A DNA stretch of 64,000 bases from Candidatus Aenigmatarchaeota archaeon (GCA_038997165.1 JAWBAK010000002.1:3083-67082), one strand, 5' to 3'. Shown: positions 8,046-19,917, counted from the stretch's first letter. The notes: generated by a model not told the origin, from the sequence alone. Translations and numbers: made by a program.

Positions 8046-8187
8046 CCCCCGGTAGCTCAGCGGTGGAGCGCCCGGCTGTAGATCTTTGCTAAATAAGCAA
8101 AGGGAGCAGTCGGCGCTCCCACACGGTTTAATGATAAGATGATTAACAGAAACCGGGAGGGCGTGGGTTCAAATCCCACCCGGGGGA
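8046..8187 (+). tRNA. tRNA-Tyr (anticodon GTA) with ~70-nt intron at canonical 37/38 position
   Basis: Acceptor cccccgg/ccggggg, D-arm gctc/gagc, anticodon stem cccgg...ccggg with loop ctGTAg interrupted by ~70 nt (approx 8082-8151), T-arm gtggg-ttcaaat-cccac, discriminator A. Exons sum to ~72 nt. Confidence 0.75.
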
Positions 8188-13998: not shown

Positions 13999-14146
13999 GA
14001 AATGCATAAATTGCAAAATATATACAATGCAAGACATTTGTCCAAAATGTAAAAATCAAACAAAAATTGCTCATCCACCAAATTTCAAATTTGTAAAGTA
14101 TCTTAAATATATTCAAGCAACAAATAATTATGGCAATAATAATTAA
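13985..14146 (+). CDS. nop10: H/ACA RNP protein Nop10 (53 aa, below ORF-track cutoff)
   Basis: Hand translation gives 'MKKIKKCINCKIYTMQDICPKCKNQTKIAHPPNFKFVKYLKY...'. It has a CxxC...CxxC zinc ribbon plus the 'AHPP(R/N)F' Nop10 signature. It overlaps the aIF2-alpha stop and the next gene start. Confidence 0.55.
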   Translation: MKKIKKCINCKIYTMQDICPKCKNQTKIAHPPNFKFVKYLKYIQATNNYGNNN

Positions 14147-14897
14147 GGAATTCAAAAAAATAAAAACAAAGAATGGAATTTTTATTGAAGGAATGCCAGG
14201 AGTTGGAAATGTTGGATTAATAGCAGCTAGTTATTTAGTAGAGCAATTAAAGCCAGAAGTTTTTGCAGAATTACATACTGGCTATTTTGGACATGCAGTA
14301 TTAATAAAACCAAATGCCGAAATTCAACTTTTAAAAGGAACATTTTATTATTATAAAAATCGAGGAAAGGAAATTGTTTTTTATATTGGTGATCAACAAG
14401 CTATTTCTCCAGAAAAGACATTTGATTTGGTAAATAAAATATTGTCATATCTTAAAAAAATTGGAATAAAAACTGTAATAACTTTGGGCGGAATTCAAAA
14501 AGGATATCCAACAAAACAAAGAAAAGTTTACGGAGCTGTTAGCGAAGAAAAAGTTAAAGAAAAATTTAAAAATTTAAAAATTGATTTTGATAATGTAAGT
14601 AAAGATGTTGGAAGCATTATTGGGGCTGTTGGAATGCTAACAGGTTACGCAAAATATTATGGATTAGAAGGTTTATGTTTATTATCAGAAAGTTTTTCAA
14701 CACCTTTTGTACCAGATCATAAAGGGGCAAAGGCGCTATTAGAAGTATTAGAAAAGATATTAGAAATAGAAATTGATTACTCTAGAATTAATAAAAAAAT
14801 TAAAGAGCAAGAATCTATAGAGGAAAAATTATCTAAAGTTCCAATATCTCAACCAAAAGAAGAAGTTGAAGAGAAAAAGTTATCATATTTAGGTTAA
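14130..14897 (+). CDS. proteasome assembly chaperone (PAC2/PbaB-like, COG1938) family protein
   Basis: 'IFIEGMPGVGNVGLIAASYLVEQL' matches the PAC2-family N-terminal signature. Its position after aIF2-alpha and Nop10 follows the conserved archaeal neighbourhood. Confidence 0.55.
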   Translation: MAIIIKEFKKIKTKNGIFIEGMPGVGNVGLIAASYLVEQLKPEVFAELHTGYFGHAVLIKPNAEIQLLKGTFYYYKNRGKEIVFYIGDQQAISPEKTFDLVNKILSYLKKIGIKTVITLGGIQKGYPTKQRKVYGAVSEEKVKEKFKNLKIDFDNVSKDVGSIIGAVGMLTGYAKYYGLEGLCLLSESFSTPFVPDHKGAKALLEVLEKILEIEIDYSRINKKIKEQESIEEKLSKVPISQPKEEVEEKKLSYLG

Positions 14898-14955
14898 TCA
14901 GAACTTGAGTGAGTTATCATTAAATCAATGGATTAGATATTCATCATCATAATAT
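14895..14955 (-). ncRNA. candidate C/D box sRNA (2'-O-methylation guide)
   Basis: The minus strand reads 'gATGATGA-atatctaatcc-aTTGA-ttta-ATGATAA-ctcactcaagtt-CTGA'. C, D', C' and D boxes are present with 11-12 nt guides. The D' guide is complementary to 'GGAUUAGAUAU', close to the universal 16S 'GGAUUAGAUAC' region. The surrounding region is locally GC-richer and noncoding. Confidence 0.45.
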
Positions 14956-15066
14956 ATTTTTGCCCTCTCAGCACTTAAGGGTTATTTCATTTTTCTTTCT
15001 GCCCATCATACATCATTGAGTTTGGCATAATATCAAATTATTTTATATTTAAAAAAACAATAATTT

Positions 15067-18000
15067 ATGATAAATAAAAGAATTTCTTTCGCGCTAATTT
15101 TCTTTCTAACTTTTTTATTTATAGAATTATCTTTCTCTAATTCTGCATATTTAATTCAAAAAGAAAAATTAGACGAAATATTAAAAAATAATAATTTTAT
15201 AATCTTATCTAAAATAAAATGTTATTTCGATAAAATATGTGCTTTAGATAAACCAATTAAAGGTTTTGAAAGTTATTTTTTTGAAGATAAGAAAATATTT
15301 AAAATTCATAGATTAGAGAGTTTATCAATTATAGATGCATATAGAGTTTGGAATACTAGTTTTGAAAATTTAAATTTAACTGGAAATAGTGTAAAAATTG
15401 CCATTTTAGATACTGGTATAGATATTTATCATCAAGATTTAAATTATTCTCTAGATAGTTGGAAATGTTTTTATTCTATTAACGAAAATGTTATAGAAAA
15501 TGATTGGAGCTATTGTAACGATGATAATGGTCATGGAACTCATGTAGCTGGAATAATTGCAGCTAGATATTTAGGAAATATTTCAAAGTGCTTTGAAGGA
15601 TATCCATGCGGAATAGCACCCAACGCAACATTATTTATTGCAAAAGTTTTTGATTCTAATGGATATGCATATTTAATAGATATACTAAATGCTTTAGAAT
15701 GGGCAGTTAATAATAGTGTAGATATTGTTTCTATGAGTTTTGGTATAGACTTATCGAGTTTTGGATTAAATTCATGCTATCCTCTTGGAAATTCTAGTTT
15801 AGAAAAAGCAATATATCTTTTTAATAGCTTATTAGATGAAATTTCTATTAAATACAATATAATTTTTGTAGCTTCCATAGGCAATAATCCTAATTCAATA
15901 TCTTCACCAGCATGCGCGAAAAATGTAATTGGAGTAGGTGCTATTAATAAAAATAAAAATATAGCATATTTTAGTTCAAGAGGTCCTATAGATAATAGAA
16001 TTAAACCAGATATAGTTGCTCCAGGCGTAAATATAAATTCTACCTTTCCAATAAATTCATATAAATCATTGAGTGGAACTTCAATGTCAACACCTTTTGT
16101 AAGCGGTGCTTTAGCTATTTTGATAGAAGCATTAAGAGAGAATAATATTTCTTATTCTTCTCAAGAATTAAAAGCAATTCTTTTAACTTCTCCAAACGAA
16201 GAATTTAGAAATAATATTTTTGGAAGTGGAGTTTTAAATGTTACTGAATTAATAAGAATTAGAAATAATTTTTTAACATTAAATATTGAAAAAAACGAAA
16301 CTTTAAGATTTAAAGTAAATAAAACAGATAATTATCCTTTCAAATTTACTATTTATAGGCATGAAAGATTTGAAGATTTAAATTTAGTTAGAGTAAGAAT
16401 AATTAAAGATAATAATGTAATTTTTGAAAGCGAAACCTTCGATAATGTCTTTCAATATAAAAATAATAGCTTAAGTGGAGAATTTTATATAGATGTAGAT
16501 ATTAAGATAATCAATAAAAGCAATACCAGCAATAAACAATTAAATCTTTTTACTTTTACATTTTCTCATAAAGTTTTAAATTTAACTGAATATCTTGAAG
16601 AAAATTTAAATAATTCTGTAGTATCGATGCTCAATGTTATTATTGATTCTCCAATAGAATTAAAATTAAATTTAGCAAATAGAACAATTAGAATTTTTAT
16701 TAGAGATTTTTCTGGTAATCCTATAGTAGCAGATAAAATAAATATTACTATATTAAATATTTCAGATAAAATTGTAAATACAACAGCTTATTTCAATAAA
16801 TCCGAAATTAATTTTACACTTCCGCCTAATCTAAATGAAAATTATTATAAACTTTATGTTATTGCTGAAAAAGAAAAAAGATTTGGAATTGCATATATTA
16901 ATTTTACTTATTTCTCATTCGAATTTTTAAGTCCTAGGGAAATTTTAAAGGTAATGAATGGAGATATTTTAAATATAACATTAAGATTTAATTATACAAA
17001 TATAAGTGTTTCACAAGCTTATTTGTATCTTGAAAATAATACAAATAAAAATATTTCTCTTAATTTTTCAAAAGAAAATTCAATTATAAGTAATATAACA
17101 TTAATTAATTTAGAGGAAGCAGGTAAATATTATTTATTCTTAAATATTTCTTTAGATGAAAATAACGGTGAATACTTTATTTTAAATCTTCCATTAATAG
17201 AATTTTCGCCAATATTTGATTATAATATTTCTTATCTTAAAAATTTGTTTGCAGATAAAGAGTATGTCTTTAATGTTTCGATCTTTCATATTAACGGAAC
17301 GAAACTTCAAATTAATAAAACTTTATGCATAGAAAATTCTACAACAAAAATATTTTGTAATTCTACAATTGATGATAGTGTTAGAATTCTTACAAACGTA
17401 TCTTTTGAGGGATTTTATAATCTTACTATAAATGTATTACACAACTCTAACTATTTAAATAAAAGTTTTCCAATAAAAATTGAATTTGAGCCAAATATTT
17501 TAATAATTGAGTTAGAAAAATCAACATTTACTATTTTTGAGCGACTAAATTTATCAGCAAGATTAATAAATTCTACAAAAAATTCTGAATGTACTTTTTG
17601 CAAAATATTTGTAAACATGACAGATAGCGAAGGAAGAGTAATATTCTTAAATAAGGAGTTAGAAGAGATTAAAAACATAAAAATTCCTAAAGACTTTAAA
17701 AAAGGAGTATATAATTTAACTCTTTTTTCAAAAATAAATCCAATTATTATAAATACAACTCAAATAAACGTAGAAACTTTAGATATTTCAACTAATGTTT
17801 CAGAAATGATATTTCCTAACTATCACAATGTTACAATAAATATCTCTATAAGTGAAAATGCAAATGTTAGTATAAATATAACTAAATATAATGTTAGTGG
17901 AATATTTCAAATAGTTTTAGATCCTTCGAATATAATTGATGGTTGTACTCCTGAAATAAATTCAGAAGGAATTTTGTGGTGTAATCAAACTAATAATATT

Positions 18001-19917
18001 ATTTTATCTATAAATTCTAGTGAAACTGCCACATTCTATATCGAAATTATTGCATTTGGGGAAAATTTAAATGGATATCTATTAGATAAATTTTATTCTG
18101 GTTTTTTAATTAGGCCATTAGAAAAAATAAATAGAAATGGTTGCGATGATATAAGAAGCGAAGACACTTTTTTAAATCCATTTATTAGGAATCATTGTTT
18201 TATAGATGAAAAGAATCAAAAAGATTTAGCAATAAATAAAAACGAAAAAATTAAATTTTTGGCAATCGCTTATGCAGGTGCTACATTAGATAAAAATATT
18301 TCAGTAAATGTAACTATAAATGTAACAGATGACTCTAATCTTACTATTTTTCAGAATACATCAAGTTTTAAAGATTTAATAAATTTTGAAATATTTAATT
18401 TCACAAAAAAAGGATTATATTTAATTAACTTAACTTTTGAGTTTAATAATATAACTAAAATAGAAACTTATAATTTAAGTGTTTATGAATTAAACTTTTC
18501 TATACAAATACCTAAAAATTACACCAAAGTTAATGATATATTAAGTATTTTTATTTTTGTTAATAGAACAAATGGAATTTCTGAAGAAATAATAAATAAC
18601 ATAACTTCTATATTTCTTTTAACACAAAATGCTAAAATAAAAAATTATAGATATGATAAATCATTACAAAAAATAGAAATTAACATTTCTTTTTCTAATC
18701 CATTTTTTGGAGATATAACTTTAAAAATTGAAGACGAATTAGGAATAGAAAGTAATATAACTATTAGAAATCTTACAGCATATCATTATGAAATTGAAAT
18801 TTCTTATCCAGAAACAGTATTCGTAGATATGGTATTTGCAGTAAAGGCTAGTTCTAAATTATTGCCCTCAAATATAAATATTCAAGCAAATTATACTATA
18901 GAGTATAGTGGAACGTGTTCTTTAGTTTCATCGAAAAATATTTTAAATACTAAAGAGGCATCTTTCATATTTAATGCAACTGATATTGGTGAGTGTAGTA
19001 TTAATATTAATTCAAACGCTACTTATTTAGATCTATTTTTTGAAAGTTATGGTCAAGCAAAAATTTCTATTTTATCTCCTCCTAAAAAAACAGAACCAAT
19101 AGAACTTCCTCAAATTCAACAATTAGCATTACTTATAAGAAAAGCTTCGGATATAATTGAAATAAAGGAAAATTCCTGGAACACAACTGTAATTTTTGTA
19201 AAAAGTATTGGTAGGAATATGAATGTTTCAGCAAAAATATTAAATTATCCAGAACATTTAGTTCAAATAATTCCTCCTAAACAATTAATCGAAGCTGATA
19301 AAGAAGGAATATTTTTGTTTAACATTTCTTTAGATAAAAATGAGACAAGAGAAGAATTTAACATAACTATTTTGTTTAATGGAAGTTTTATTACTAATAA
19401 AACTGATTTAAAGATTAAAGTTTTACGATTAAAGATAGAGGACAAAAAAATAGAATTAGAAAACGAAATTAGAGAATTGGAGAACGAAATTTCTGAATTA
19501 GAAAACAAAATAATAGAATTAAACCAAAGAGAATTATTAGACGAAATTTTAAATATAAAAAATTTGTTAGATTTAGCAAAAGAAGAGTTAAATAAAGGAA
19601 ATATAGCAAAAGTAATGGAAATTATTAACGATATAAAAAATTCAATAAACTATATAAAAAATTCAATAAACTATGTTAAGAATAAGTTAAATGAACAGCA
19701 AACAAAAGTAATGGAAAAACCAAACAATTTTACATTTTTATTAATAATTTTATTAATTATTGCTGGAATTTCTGCAATAATTTTTGTATTATTTATATAT
19801 CCAAAACTTAAATTTAAAAAACCATATTATGATATTAAAAAACAAAAATTTGTTTGGACAAAAGAAGATGAATCTGTTTGGGAAAAGCTGAAAGAAAAAT
19901 GGAGGAAAAAACAATAA
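15067..19917 (+). CDS. giant subtilisin-like (S8) serine peptidase, surface-anchored (1616 aa)
   Basis: Signal peptide, S8 catalytic triad motifs 'ILDTGIDIYHQD', 'HGTHVAGIIAA', 'GTSMSTPFVSGALA'. Then ~1100 aa with dozens of NxS/T sequons, coiled-coil 'ELENEIRELENEISELENKIIEL', and a C-terminal TM helix plus basic tail. Confidence 0.8.
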   Translation: MINKRISFALIFFLTFLFIELSFSNSAYLIQKEKLDEILKNNNFIILSKIKCYFDKICALDKPIKGFESYFFEDKKIFKIHRLESLSIIDAYRVWNTSFENLNLTGNSVKIAILDTGIDIYHQDLNYSLDSWKCFYSINENVIENDWSYCNDDNGHGTHVAGIIAARYLGNISKCFEGYPCGIAPNATLFIAKVFDSNGYAYLIDILNALEWAVNNSVDIVSMSFGIDLSSFGLNSCYPLGNSSLEKAIYLFNSLLDEISIKYNIIFVASIGNNPNSISSPACAKNVIGVGAINKNKNIAYFSSRGPIDNRIKPDIVAPGVNINSTFPINSYKSLSGTSMSTPFVSGALAILIEALRENNISYSSQELKAILLTSPNEEFRNNIFGSGVLNVTELIRIRNNFLTLNIEKNETLRFKVNKTDNYPFKFTIYRHERFEDLNLVRVRIIKDNNVIFESETFDNVFQYKNNSLSGEFYIDVDIKIINKSNTSNKQLNLFTFTFSHKVLNLTEYLEENLNNSVVSMLNVIIDSPIELKLNLANRTIRIFIRDFSGNPIVADKINITILNISDKIVNTTAYFNKSEINFTLPPNLNENYYKLYVIAEKEKRFGIAYINFTYFSFEFLSPREILKVMNGDILNITLRFNYTNISVSQAYLYLENNTNKNISLNFSKENSIISNITLINLEEAGKYYLFLNISLDENNGEYFILNLPLIEFSPIFDYNISYLKNLFADKEYVFNVSIFHINGTKLQINKTLCIENSTTKIFCNSTIDDSVRILTNVSFEGFYNLTINVLHNSNYLNKSFPIKIEFEPNILIIELEKSTFTIFERLNLSARLINSTKNSECTFCKIFVNMTDSEGRVIFLNKELEEIKNIKIPKDFKKGVYNLTLFSKINPIIINTTQINVETLDISTNVSEMIFPNYHNVTINISISENANVSINITKYNVSGIFQIVLDPSNIIDGCTPEINSEGILWCNQTNNIILSINSSETATFYIEIIAFGENLNGYLLDKFYSGFLIRPLEKINRNGCDDIRSEDTFLNPFIRNHCFIDEKNQKDLAINKNEKIKFLAIAYAGATLDKNISVNVTINVTDDSNLTIFQNTSSFKDLINFEIFNFTKKGLYLINLTFEFNNITKIETYNLSVYELNFSIQIPKNYTKVNDILSIFIFVNRTNGISEEIINNITSIFLLTQNAKIKNYRYDKSLQKIEINISFSNPFFGDITLKIEDELGIESNITIRNLTAYHYEIEISYPETVFVDMVFAVKASSKLLPSNINIQANYTIEYSGTCSLVSSKNILNTKEASFIFNATDIGECSININSNATYLDLFFESYGQAKISILSPPKKTEPIELPQIQQLALLIRKASDIIEIKENSWNTTVIFVKSIGRNMNVSAKILNYPEHLVQIIPPKQLIEADKEGIFLFNISLDKNETREEFNITILFNGSFITNKTDLKIKVLRLKIEDKKIELENEIRELENEISELENKIIELNQRELLDEILNIKNLLDLAKEELNKGNIAKVMEIINDIKNSINYIKNSINYVKNKLNEQQTKVMEKPNNFTFLLIILLIIAGISAIIFVLFIYPKLKFKKPYYDIKKQKFVWTKEDESVWEKLKEKWRKKQ

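Follow-up and report, generated by a model that had tools for sequence, protein, structure and literature searches.

A pair of candidate box C/D guide RNA genes in an intergenic spacer of a Candidatus Aenigmatarchaeota genome

The gap between a PAC2-family gene and a subtilase gene in a 64,000-nucleotide (nt) stretch of Candidatus Aenigmatarchaeota archaeon DNA (GCA_038997165.1, JAWBAK010000002.1:3083-67082; the whole stretch is referred to as the window) raises the question of whether it encodes small RNAs (sRNAs) of the box C/D class and, if so, which RNAs they would mark for methylation. An earlier reading of the window sequence, the original prediction, had proposed one such RNA on the minus strand and suspected a second, weaker C/D-like unit just upstream of it. 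The gap is a 169-bp intergenic spacer with two box C/D units in tandem on its minus strand, and, judged from the sequence, these are very probably a back-to-back pair of genes for box C/D guide RNAs; we put the probability that both are functional guide RNA genes at about 0.9. The class of RNA is well known, and its members in this lineage of DPANN archaea (Aenigmatarchaeota) are very probably new.

Architecture of the two units

Unit 1, a dual-guide box C/D sRNA of 50 nt from C box to D box (14898..14947, minus strand), was delineated from the sequence and from architecture scans. Read 5′ to 3′, it comprises a C box, AUGAUGA (14941..14947), that is invariant in congeners; a 12-nt D′ guide, atatctaatcca (14929..14940), that pairs with positions 739-748 of the organism’s own 16S rRNA; a D′ box, UUGA (14925..14928), which reads YTGA or ATGA in other genera; a 4-nt D′-C′ spacer, ttta (14921-14924), of which both length and sequence vary among congeners; a C′ box, AUGAUAA (14914..14920), kept among congeners while the spacer varies; a 12-nt D guide, ctcactcaagtt (14902..14913), that pairs with the precursor of tRNA-Ser(UGA), hereafter pre-tRNA-Ser(UGA); and a D box, CUGA (14898..14901), one base short of where the convergent PAC2-family gene has its stop codon (14895-14897). 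The order C box, guide, D′ box, 4-nt spacer, C′ box, 12-nt guide and D box on the minus strand had been proposed before and was borne out when the sequence was read, except that the first guide, taken to be 11 nt, is in fact 12 nt long, which makes the geometry more canonical. Unit 1 folded into less structure than shuffled sequence, in agreement with guides that have to stay single-stranded.

Unit 2, likewise recovered by architecture scans (14961..15027, minus strand; C box to D box 15016..14968), is a dual-guide box C/D sRNA with a terminal stem, and this closing stem (UGCC/GGCA plus CUC/GAG) is present in the minimum free energy (MFE) fold. Its C box, AUGAUGU (15010..15016), follows a parse confirmed by the modules of relatives, TGARGA-NTGAYGGGCAG-NNGA, and is followed by a 12-nt D′ guide, atgatgggcaga (14998..15009), that pairs with positions 1357-1366 of the organism’s own 16S rRNA. 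The D′ box, AAGA (14994..14997), is degenerate and reads TTGA, ATGA or TAGA in other genera; after a 3-nt D′-C′ spacer, aaa (14991-14993), come a C′ box, AUGAAAU (14984..14990), that is also degenerate, a 12-nt D guide, aacccttaagtg (14972..14983), that pairs with 16S positions 867-876, and a D box, CUGA (14968..14971). The weaker unit that had been suspected upstream thus turned out to be genuine, with an exact 12/12 geometry and guides that match 16S C1402 and 912 (E. coli numbering).

Both units have a C box of the RUGAUGA type towards the 5′ end and a CUGA box towards the 3′ end, and their D′-C′ linkers, 4 nt in unit 1 and 3 nt in unit 2, fall within the 3-9 nt compatible with a kink-loop (K-loop). 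The spacers of this class measure ~12 nt, and all four guides are exactly that length; each of the four forms a duplex of 10-11 bp that contains the N+5 nucleotide, i.e., the target nucleotide that pairs with the guide base in fifth position upstream of D′ or D. The units belong to the C/D class and to no named Rfam family: at gathering thresholds Rfam returned only tRNAs for the window, and at permissive thresholds all sub-threshold matches at the locus were to C/D families. Sub-threshold Rfam scores are usual for C/D sRNAs with new guides.

To gauge the excess over chance, the genome was scanned for the full architecture (a C box with the core UGA[A/G/U]G, 12 nt, NNGA, linker, NUGANNN, 12 nt, CUGA), the core being chosen to admit the AUGAAGA variant of the C box that an exact UGAUG core misses. 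Four matches were obtained, units 1 and 2 being two of the four; the reversed genome gave none, and 40 block-shuffled genomes gave a mean of 0.225 per genome. Guides were then compared with a target set made up of the organism’s own 16S and 23S rRNAs and 47 ARAGORN tRNA calls (8,631 nt in total), and only contiguous duplexes that took in the fifth base before D′ or D were counted. Of 3,000 12-mers drawn at random from the genome, ~2% reached 10 Watson-Crick (WC) pairs and ~10% reached 9. Ten WC pairs are formed by the D′ guide of unit 1, the D guide of unit 1 and the D guide of unit 2, and the D′ guide of unit 2 forms 9 WC pairs and one G.U, so that the joint chance of the four matches is on the order of 1e-6. 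A looser scan found both guides with at least 9 bp at only three loci in the genome, namely unit 1, unit 2 and C1:263694-263742, and at none in the control.

In layout, the units resemble the dual-guide C/D sRNAs of other archaea (the sR RNAs of Pyrococcus and those of Sulfolobus, Pyrobaculum and N. equitans), which are ~50 nt long and arranged C-12-D′-3/4-C′-12-D. The likeness extends to ~10-bp rRNA guides, the N+5 rule, the proteins fibrillarin, Nop5 and L7Ae, the clustering of two genes, and the position of an sRNA against the end of a protein-coding gene (PMC7994747, PMC4644070, PMC6009581). Set against those of other archaea, the repertoire looks very small, with ~4 free-standing genes plus intron-borne modules vs. 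26 in N. equitans and >100 in many hyperthermophiles, and unit 1 is distinctive in joining an rRNA guide and a putative tRNA guide in one RNA. No sRNA annotation was found for Aenigmatarchaeota.

Predicted target sites in 16S rRNA and tRNA-Ser(UGA)

Positions in E. coli numbering were taken from an alignment of the organism’s own 16S rRNA to E. coli rrsH. The original prediction had matched the D′ guide of unit 1 to the conserved 16S segment GGAUUAGAUAC, and this pairing held on the organism’s own 16S rRNA, with 10 bp and the N+5 nucleotide within the duplex; the organism’s own sequence (GGGAUUAGAUACCCC) gives 10 contiguous WC pairs. The duplex, GGAUUAGAUA, leaves both terminal guide bases unpaired and places N+5 on position 742, equivalent to E. 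coli U788 in the loop of helix 24. In unit 2, the D′ guide forms a 10-bp duplex, CUGCCCGUCA, with N+5 on position 1360, equivalent to C1402 in the decoding centre, and the D guide forms another of 10 bp, ACUUAAGGGU, with N+5 on position 870, equivalent to E. coli 912 (a U here), at the 3′ end of helix 27. Aligned to the rRNAs and tRNAs of the organism, each guide of unit 1 found a match, one in 16S rRNA and the other in pre-tRNA-Ser(UGA), with the predicted N+5 site inside the duplex.

The three predicted 16S sites, U788, C1402 and 912, are likely to be correct. In bacteria, a protein enzyme that uses no guide RNA puts the ribose methyl group on C1402. Ribose methylation of this nucleotide is known from E. 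coli, yeast (Cm1639, snR70), human (Cm1703) and Arabidopsis (PMC2794176), and helix 27 is a conserved hotspot of methylation in archaea (PMC7994747). The D′ guide of unit 2, directed to the top of helix 44, is comparable to yeast snR70 (18S Cm1639, equivalent to E. coli Cm1402 and human Cm1703) as a functional equivalent only, homology of the guide RNAs not being demonstrable. The two targets of unit 2 lie ~490 nt apart in 16S rRNA, around what we take to be the neck and decoding centre of the 30S subunit for both 912 and 1402, and this distance points to a possible role in drawing remote 16S segments together during folding. By analogy with sR17 and sR15 of N. equitans, proposed chaperones that likewise carry two guides to distant 16S strands (PMC4644070), unit 2 may also be a folding chaperone; the sites of sR17 and sR15, unlike those of unit 2, occupy both strands of helices 28 and 30, and for either set of RNAs a role as chaperone is speculative.

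The D guide of unit 1 forms 11 bp (10 WC and one G.U) with pre-tRNA-Ser(UGA) across the 5′ exon-intron junction, covering 5′ exon positions 30-36 and the first four bases of the intron, and its N+5 nucleotide is the wobble base, U34. Since the 11 bp on the precursor fall to 7-8 bp on the spliced tRNA-Ser(UGA), the guide should act on the precursor. Use of intron bases in the duplex together with an N+5 on position 34 is what characterizes an intron-dependent N34 guide of the sR-tMet type, and both are found here. ARAGORN placed the intron at 36/37; the sequence would allow a 37/38 splice just as well, with the prediction of U34 unaffected, and the MFE fold of pre-tRNA-Ser(UGA) contained neither a cloverleaf nor any bulge-helix-bulge (BHB) element. 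We favour U34 of tRNA-Ser(UGA) as the target, with distinctly less assurance than the 16S sites, and the locus on this basis predicts an intron-dependent 2′-O-methylated U34 (Um34) in that tRNA.

Guides of this kind have counterparts elsewhere. Haloferax volcanii sR-tMet (PMC4033218) and the wobble-34 guides of Pyrococcus and Pyrobaculum (PMC6009581) are also trans-acting and place N+5 on position 34 of one tRNA, and Pyrobaculum has guides for U34 as well as for C34, each directed at one tRNA (PMC6009581). The substrate of sR-tMet is likewise a pre-tRNA (Joardar et al., 2011; PMC4033218), and PMC4033218 also describes C/D RNA-guided Cm34 in Haloferax elongator pre-tRNA-Met, through sR-tMet, and in pre-tRNA-Trp; C/D-guided Cm34 of pre-tRNA-Trp is also described in PMC11408192. 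Unlike that of sR-tMet, the target here is U34 of tRNA-Ser(UGA), a site for which no report was found, and the targeted intron is itself C/D-like, the duplex covering the first four bases of its C-like box.

Conservation, proposed mechanism and competing explanations

Four congeners carry the locus at 88-99% identity, three with both units (G001, G004 and G005) and one with unit 1 only (G006). Boxes and guide cores are invariant among them, and D′-C′ linkers, flanks and unpaired terminal guide bases vary, the pattern expected of a guide RNA. The D′ core of unit 1, TATCTAATC, varies only at its unpaired terminal positions; in G005, the U788 guide has lost one pair at the 3′ end and gained one at the 5′ end, so that the length of the duplex is kept. 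Across the order, the module composed of C box, U788 guide and D′ box was found in 16 of 118 genomes, once in each, and the reversed pattern in none; a module for C1402 was found in 18 of the 118, distributed over five families, again with an empty reversed control, and it carries U or C opposite G1405 (G.U or G-C).

The proteins that such RNAs would need are encoded in the genome: fibrillarin (269 bits), Nop5 adjacent to it (155 bits) and L7Ae (106 bits), all above Pfam cut-offs. The two units are probably transcribed together, unit 2 before unit 1, and C/D sRNA genes are known to occur in groups of two or three (PMC7994747). A TATA-like element, TTTAAATA (15046..15053, minus strand), ~26 nt upstream of the unit 2 stem, may be the promoter of a dicistronic transcript, although at 24% GC such an element carries little weight, and neither G004 nor G005 conserves the upstream region; a T5 run (14874..14878, minus strand), which follows the unit 1 D box after ~20 nt, might serve as an archaeal oligo-T terminator, and is weak evidence too in AT-rich DNA. 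From what is known of the family, we infer that L7Ae would bind the C/D and C′/D′ kink motifs of each RNA, that Nop5 and fibrillarin would then assemble on an RNA presenting two 12-nt guides, and that fibrillarin would 2′-O-methylate the N+5 nucleotide of each target. Unit 1 would thereby direct modification of 16S U788 through its D′ guide and of U34 in unspliced tRNA-Ser(UGA) through its D guide, the unspliced form since the first intron bases supply 3-4 of the 11 pairs, and unit 2 would direct modification of 16S C1402 through its D′ guide and of 16S 912 through its D guide.

If so, two candidate methylation-guide RNAs, and genome-wide some four to six, are newly annotated for a DPANN lineage. 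A 0.65-Mb genome would then have kept guides for a few decoding-centre sites, among them the C1402 methylation common to all three domains, which suggests modifications that a minimal ribosome cannot do without.

Several observations weigh against this picture or parts of it. The MFE fold gives unit 1 no terminal stem, and the internal boxes of unit 2 (AAGA and AUGAAAU) are degenerate, even if they still retain the GA and UGA cores. No Rfam family reached its gathering score here, the best, sR5 (RF01304), scoring 19.4 bits vs. 40; in G006 the D box region of unit 1 reads CTTGA, either a register shift by one base or an assembly error; and all 17 of the 17 sequencing runs returned for this DNA were hot-spring DNA metagenomes, none of them RNA. 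For the tRNA target in particular, the second guide of a Pyrobaculum sRNA directed at tRNA is usually an orphan (PMC7994747), and that of unit 1 departs from this pattern in hitting rRNA. The target is, moreover, a single 11-bp match; guide and target are both invariant in the genus, which leaves no support from covariation; and a pattern search of the 118 genomes of the order did not find the tRNA-Ser guide outside the genus of the window. Three matches to a box-plus-exon pattern outside the genus (G090, G043 and G027) were put down to chance, the reversed control having matched twice as well: a tRNA-Ser query found nothing in these genomes, and the match in G090 lies in apparent coding sequence and lacks both an upstream C box and a matching tRNA.

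The likeliest alternative to the full proposal accepts the sRNAs and gives up the tRNA. The units would then be genuine C/D ribonucleoproteins acting mainly on 16S rRNA, by methylation, as chaperones or both, and the D guide of unit 1 an orphan or a guide to something else, its match to tRNA-Ser being fortuitous. One match of 10-11 bp is expected by chance for ~2% of guides, covariation is unavailable for a guide that the search found in one genus only, and orphan guides are common (PMC7994747). We nevertheless consider a fortuitous match unlikely, since N+5 falls exactly on wobble position 34, the classic site of C/D-guided tRNA modification, and since the target stretch, GACUUGAGUGA, with its four intron bases, is invariant in all five genomes of the genus although much of the intron body varies, the core of the guide being invariant too.

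Much less probable is an account in which the spacer carries no working RNA gene, either because it is cis-regulatory DNA, i.e., promoter or terminator of the subtilase or PAC2 genes, or because the units are decayed, non-functional remnants of intron-derived C/D modules. The spacer must indeed also hold the subtilase promoter, but 12-nt guides and boxes that stay invariant while linkers vary do not follow the logic of a promoter, and conservation is lowest in the AT-rich upstream region. The modules could conceivably have relocated and then decayed, the U788 module being intron-borne in other genera, and the degenerate internal boxes of unit 2 would fit it; decay would, however, erode the full-length duplexes that all four guides keep with their present targets. 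The idea that box-like words and rRNA-complementary 10-mers merely co-occur in AT-rich DNA without any RNA gene is scarcely credible, for although ATGA-rich words are frequent at 24% GC, an architecture expected 0.23 times per genome was observed four times, twice in this one spacer, the joint chance of the guide matches is ~1e-6, boxes and guides are selectively conserved in congeners, and the modules recur across families with empty controls.

The locus and related modules in introns

The two units, which we continue to read as functional guide RNA genes, lie in a 652-kb genome of four contigs with ~24% GC and an estimated ~94% completeness. The window DNA occurs only in hot-spring metagenomes, and relatives of the PAC2-family neighbour were found in metagenome-assembled genomes labelled Candidatus Aenigmatarchaeota. 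The PAC2-family gene occupies 14130-14897 and the subtilase gene, encoding 1,616 amino acids, 15067-19917, both on the plus strand. The gap had been described as locally GC-richer; at 0.28-0.29 it does exceed the adjacent spacer (0.14-0.22), but it resembles neighbouring coding DNA, which makes the remark a weak one.

C/D-like layouts were also found inside introns of tRNA genes. The 65-nt intron of tRNA-Ser(UGA) (G000:C1:374688-374838; L031:189-339) and the 56-nt intron of tRNA-Ser(CGA) (G000:C1:396278-396419) both have a C/D layout in which the spacers measure 12 nt. In the former, the conserved first guide pairs over 9-11 bp with 16S rRNA, with N+5 on E. coli A1408, and the C-like box overlaps the target of the unit 1 D guide. 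A1408 is a predicted site in S. acidocaldarius and N. equitans as well (PMC4644070). In G006, which has no unit 2 at the locus, the second guide in the tRNA-Ser(UGA) intron (L035:662-802), AACCCTTAAGTG, and the D guide of unit 2 are identical 12-mers, so that two species hold one guide specificity in different settings, the one in a tRNA intron, the other as part of a free-standing sRNA. The C/D RNA in the euryarchaeal tRNA-Trp intron sets a precedent for guides in BHB introns that act on the RNA of their host (PMC11408192), and as such it bears on the tRNA-Ser introns of this genome and on the 16S introns of its relatives described below; in contrast to that RNA, the window locus is free-standing, and the intron hosts here are 16S and tRNA-Ser genes.

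The 16S genes of the window’s genus are uninterrupted (1,473-1,479 nt), and those of other genera measure 1.5-3.2 kb, with insertions at recurrent sites. The 52 insertions found in 24 16S genes contained 15 strict C-12-D modules vs. 0 in reversed sequence, and eight of their guides pair over at least 9 bp with host exons vs. 0 in the control. One recurrent intron, of ~80-100 nt, follows the position equivalent to ~755 of the organism’s own 16S rRNA (~E. coli 801), ~10 nt 3′ of GGAUUAGAUACCC, and has canonical BHB geometry, a 4-bp helix (exon CCCG/intron CGGG) between 3-nt bulges at the inferred splice sites. In genera g2, g4, g11 and g17 it carries the U788 module, ~10 nt downstream of the module’s own target, and also a D-type guide for an overlapping segment with N+5 at ~U793 (site-755 loci: L085 in the 16S gene of G012, L046 in that of G057, and L082, L084, L081, L061, L062, L078 and L080). 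The sequence GGGAAAGTCC, downstream of the U788 module in relatives, was considered as the CR-I motif of RNase P RNA and rejected, being the 16S 3′ exon; the RNase P RNA of this genome lies elsewhere. A second 16S intron, at site 1429/1438 (L046, L075, L078, L080 and L074), holds a complete, canonical dual-guide C/D sRNA inside an 8-bp stem, with guides for A1408 and for the anti-Shine-Dalgarno region, UCACCUCC (N+5 at ~C1535). Between the A1408 guides of 16S introns and those of tRNA introns there is a compensatory change, host position 1409 being C or A and the guide base G or U.

Common descent of free-standing and intron-borne U788 modules cannot be asserted from these comparisons, since any U788 guide must carry this sequence, and the modules are treated as functionally equivalent only. 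Each genome that carries the U788 module has exactly one copy, either intron-borne or free-standing. We regard as evenly poised the idea that C/D guide modules of Aenigmatarchaeota are cargo of BHB introns in 16S and tRNA-Ser genes as well as free-standing genes and move between these settings; if it holds, they would be an archaeal counterpart of intron-encoded small nucleolar RNAs (snoRNAs) in which the host gene is the target. A literature search found no paper on C/D guides in archaeal rRNA introns, although its coverage was incomplete and novelty is unproven. By linking free-standing sRNAs with modules in rRNA and tRNA introns, the comparison bears on the origin of intron-encoded snoRNAs, and in this respect the intron-hosted relatives are a more novel lead than the window locus itself.

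Further C/D-like elements were noted outside the spacer. A candidate C/D sRNA of canonical form at G000:C1:263694-263742 (plus strand) has 10-bp matches to positions 489 and 361 of the organism’s own 16S rRNA, and another at G000:C1:394852-394900 (minus strand) has the AUGAAGA variant of the C box and weaker matches of 8-9 bp; the free-standing repertoire of the genome seems to comprise only some four genes. In family f3 (G020, G026 and G029; L043, L044 and L045), intergenic chains of four C-12nt-D modules, one with a U788 guide, amount to two fused dual-guide units, with internal D-type boxes that are degenerate (CCAA, CTAA, CGGA) and C boxes of the AUGARGA type.

Five shorter tRNA introns (G000, C1:136196-136313, 245970-246075, 392084-392210, 422074-422176 and 549078-549185) share a 3′ motif that consists of GCUUUGAA (GCUCUGAA in one of them), 2-4 nt, and a C′-like box (UGAUAAG, AUGAUAA(G), AUGAAAG or AUGAAG). 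In sequence, this motif resembles a K-loop formed by D′ box, linker and C′ box and could be a putative L7Ae site, or it may simply be part of the BHB pairing. Within the window, Rfam identified a 142-nt intron-containing tRNA at 8046-8187, which ARAGORN misses when run on the window and, when run on the genome, reports as tRNA-Tyr(gta) with a 70-nt intron.

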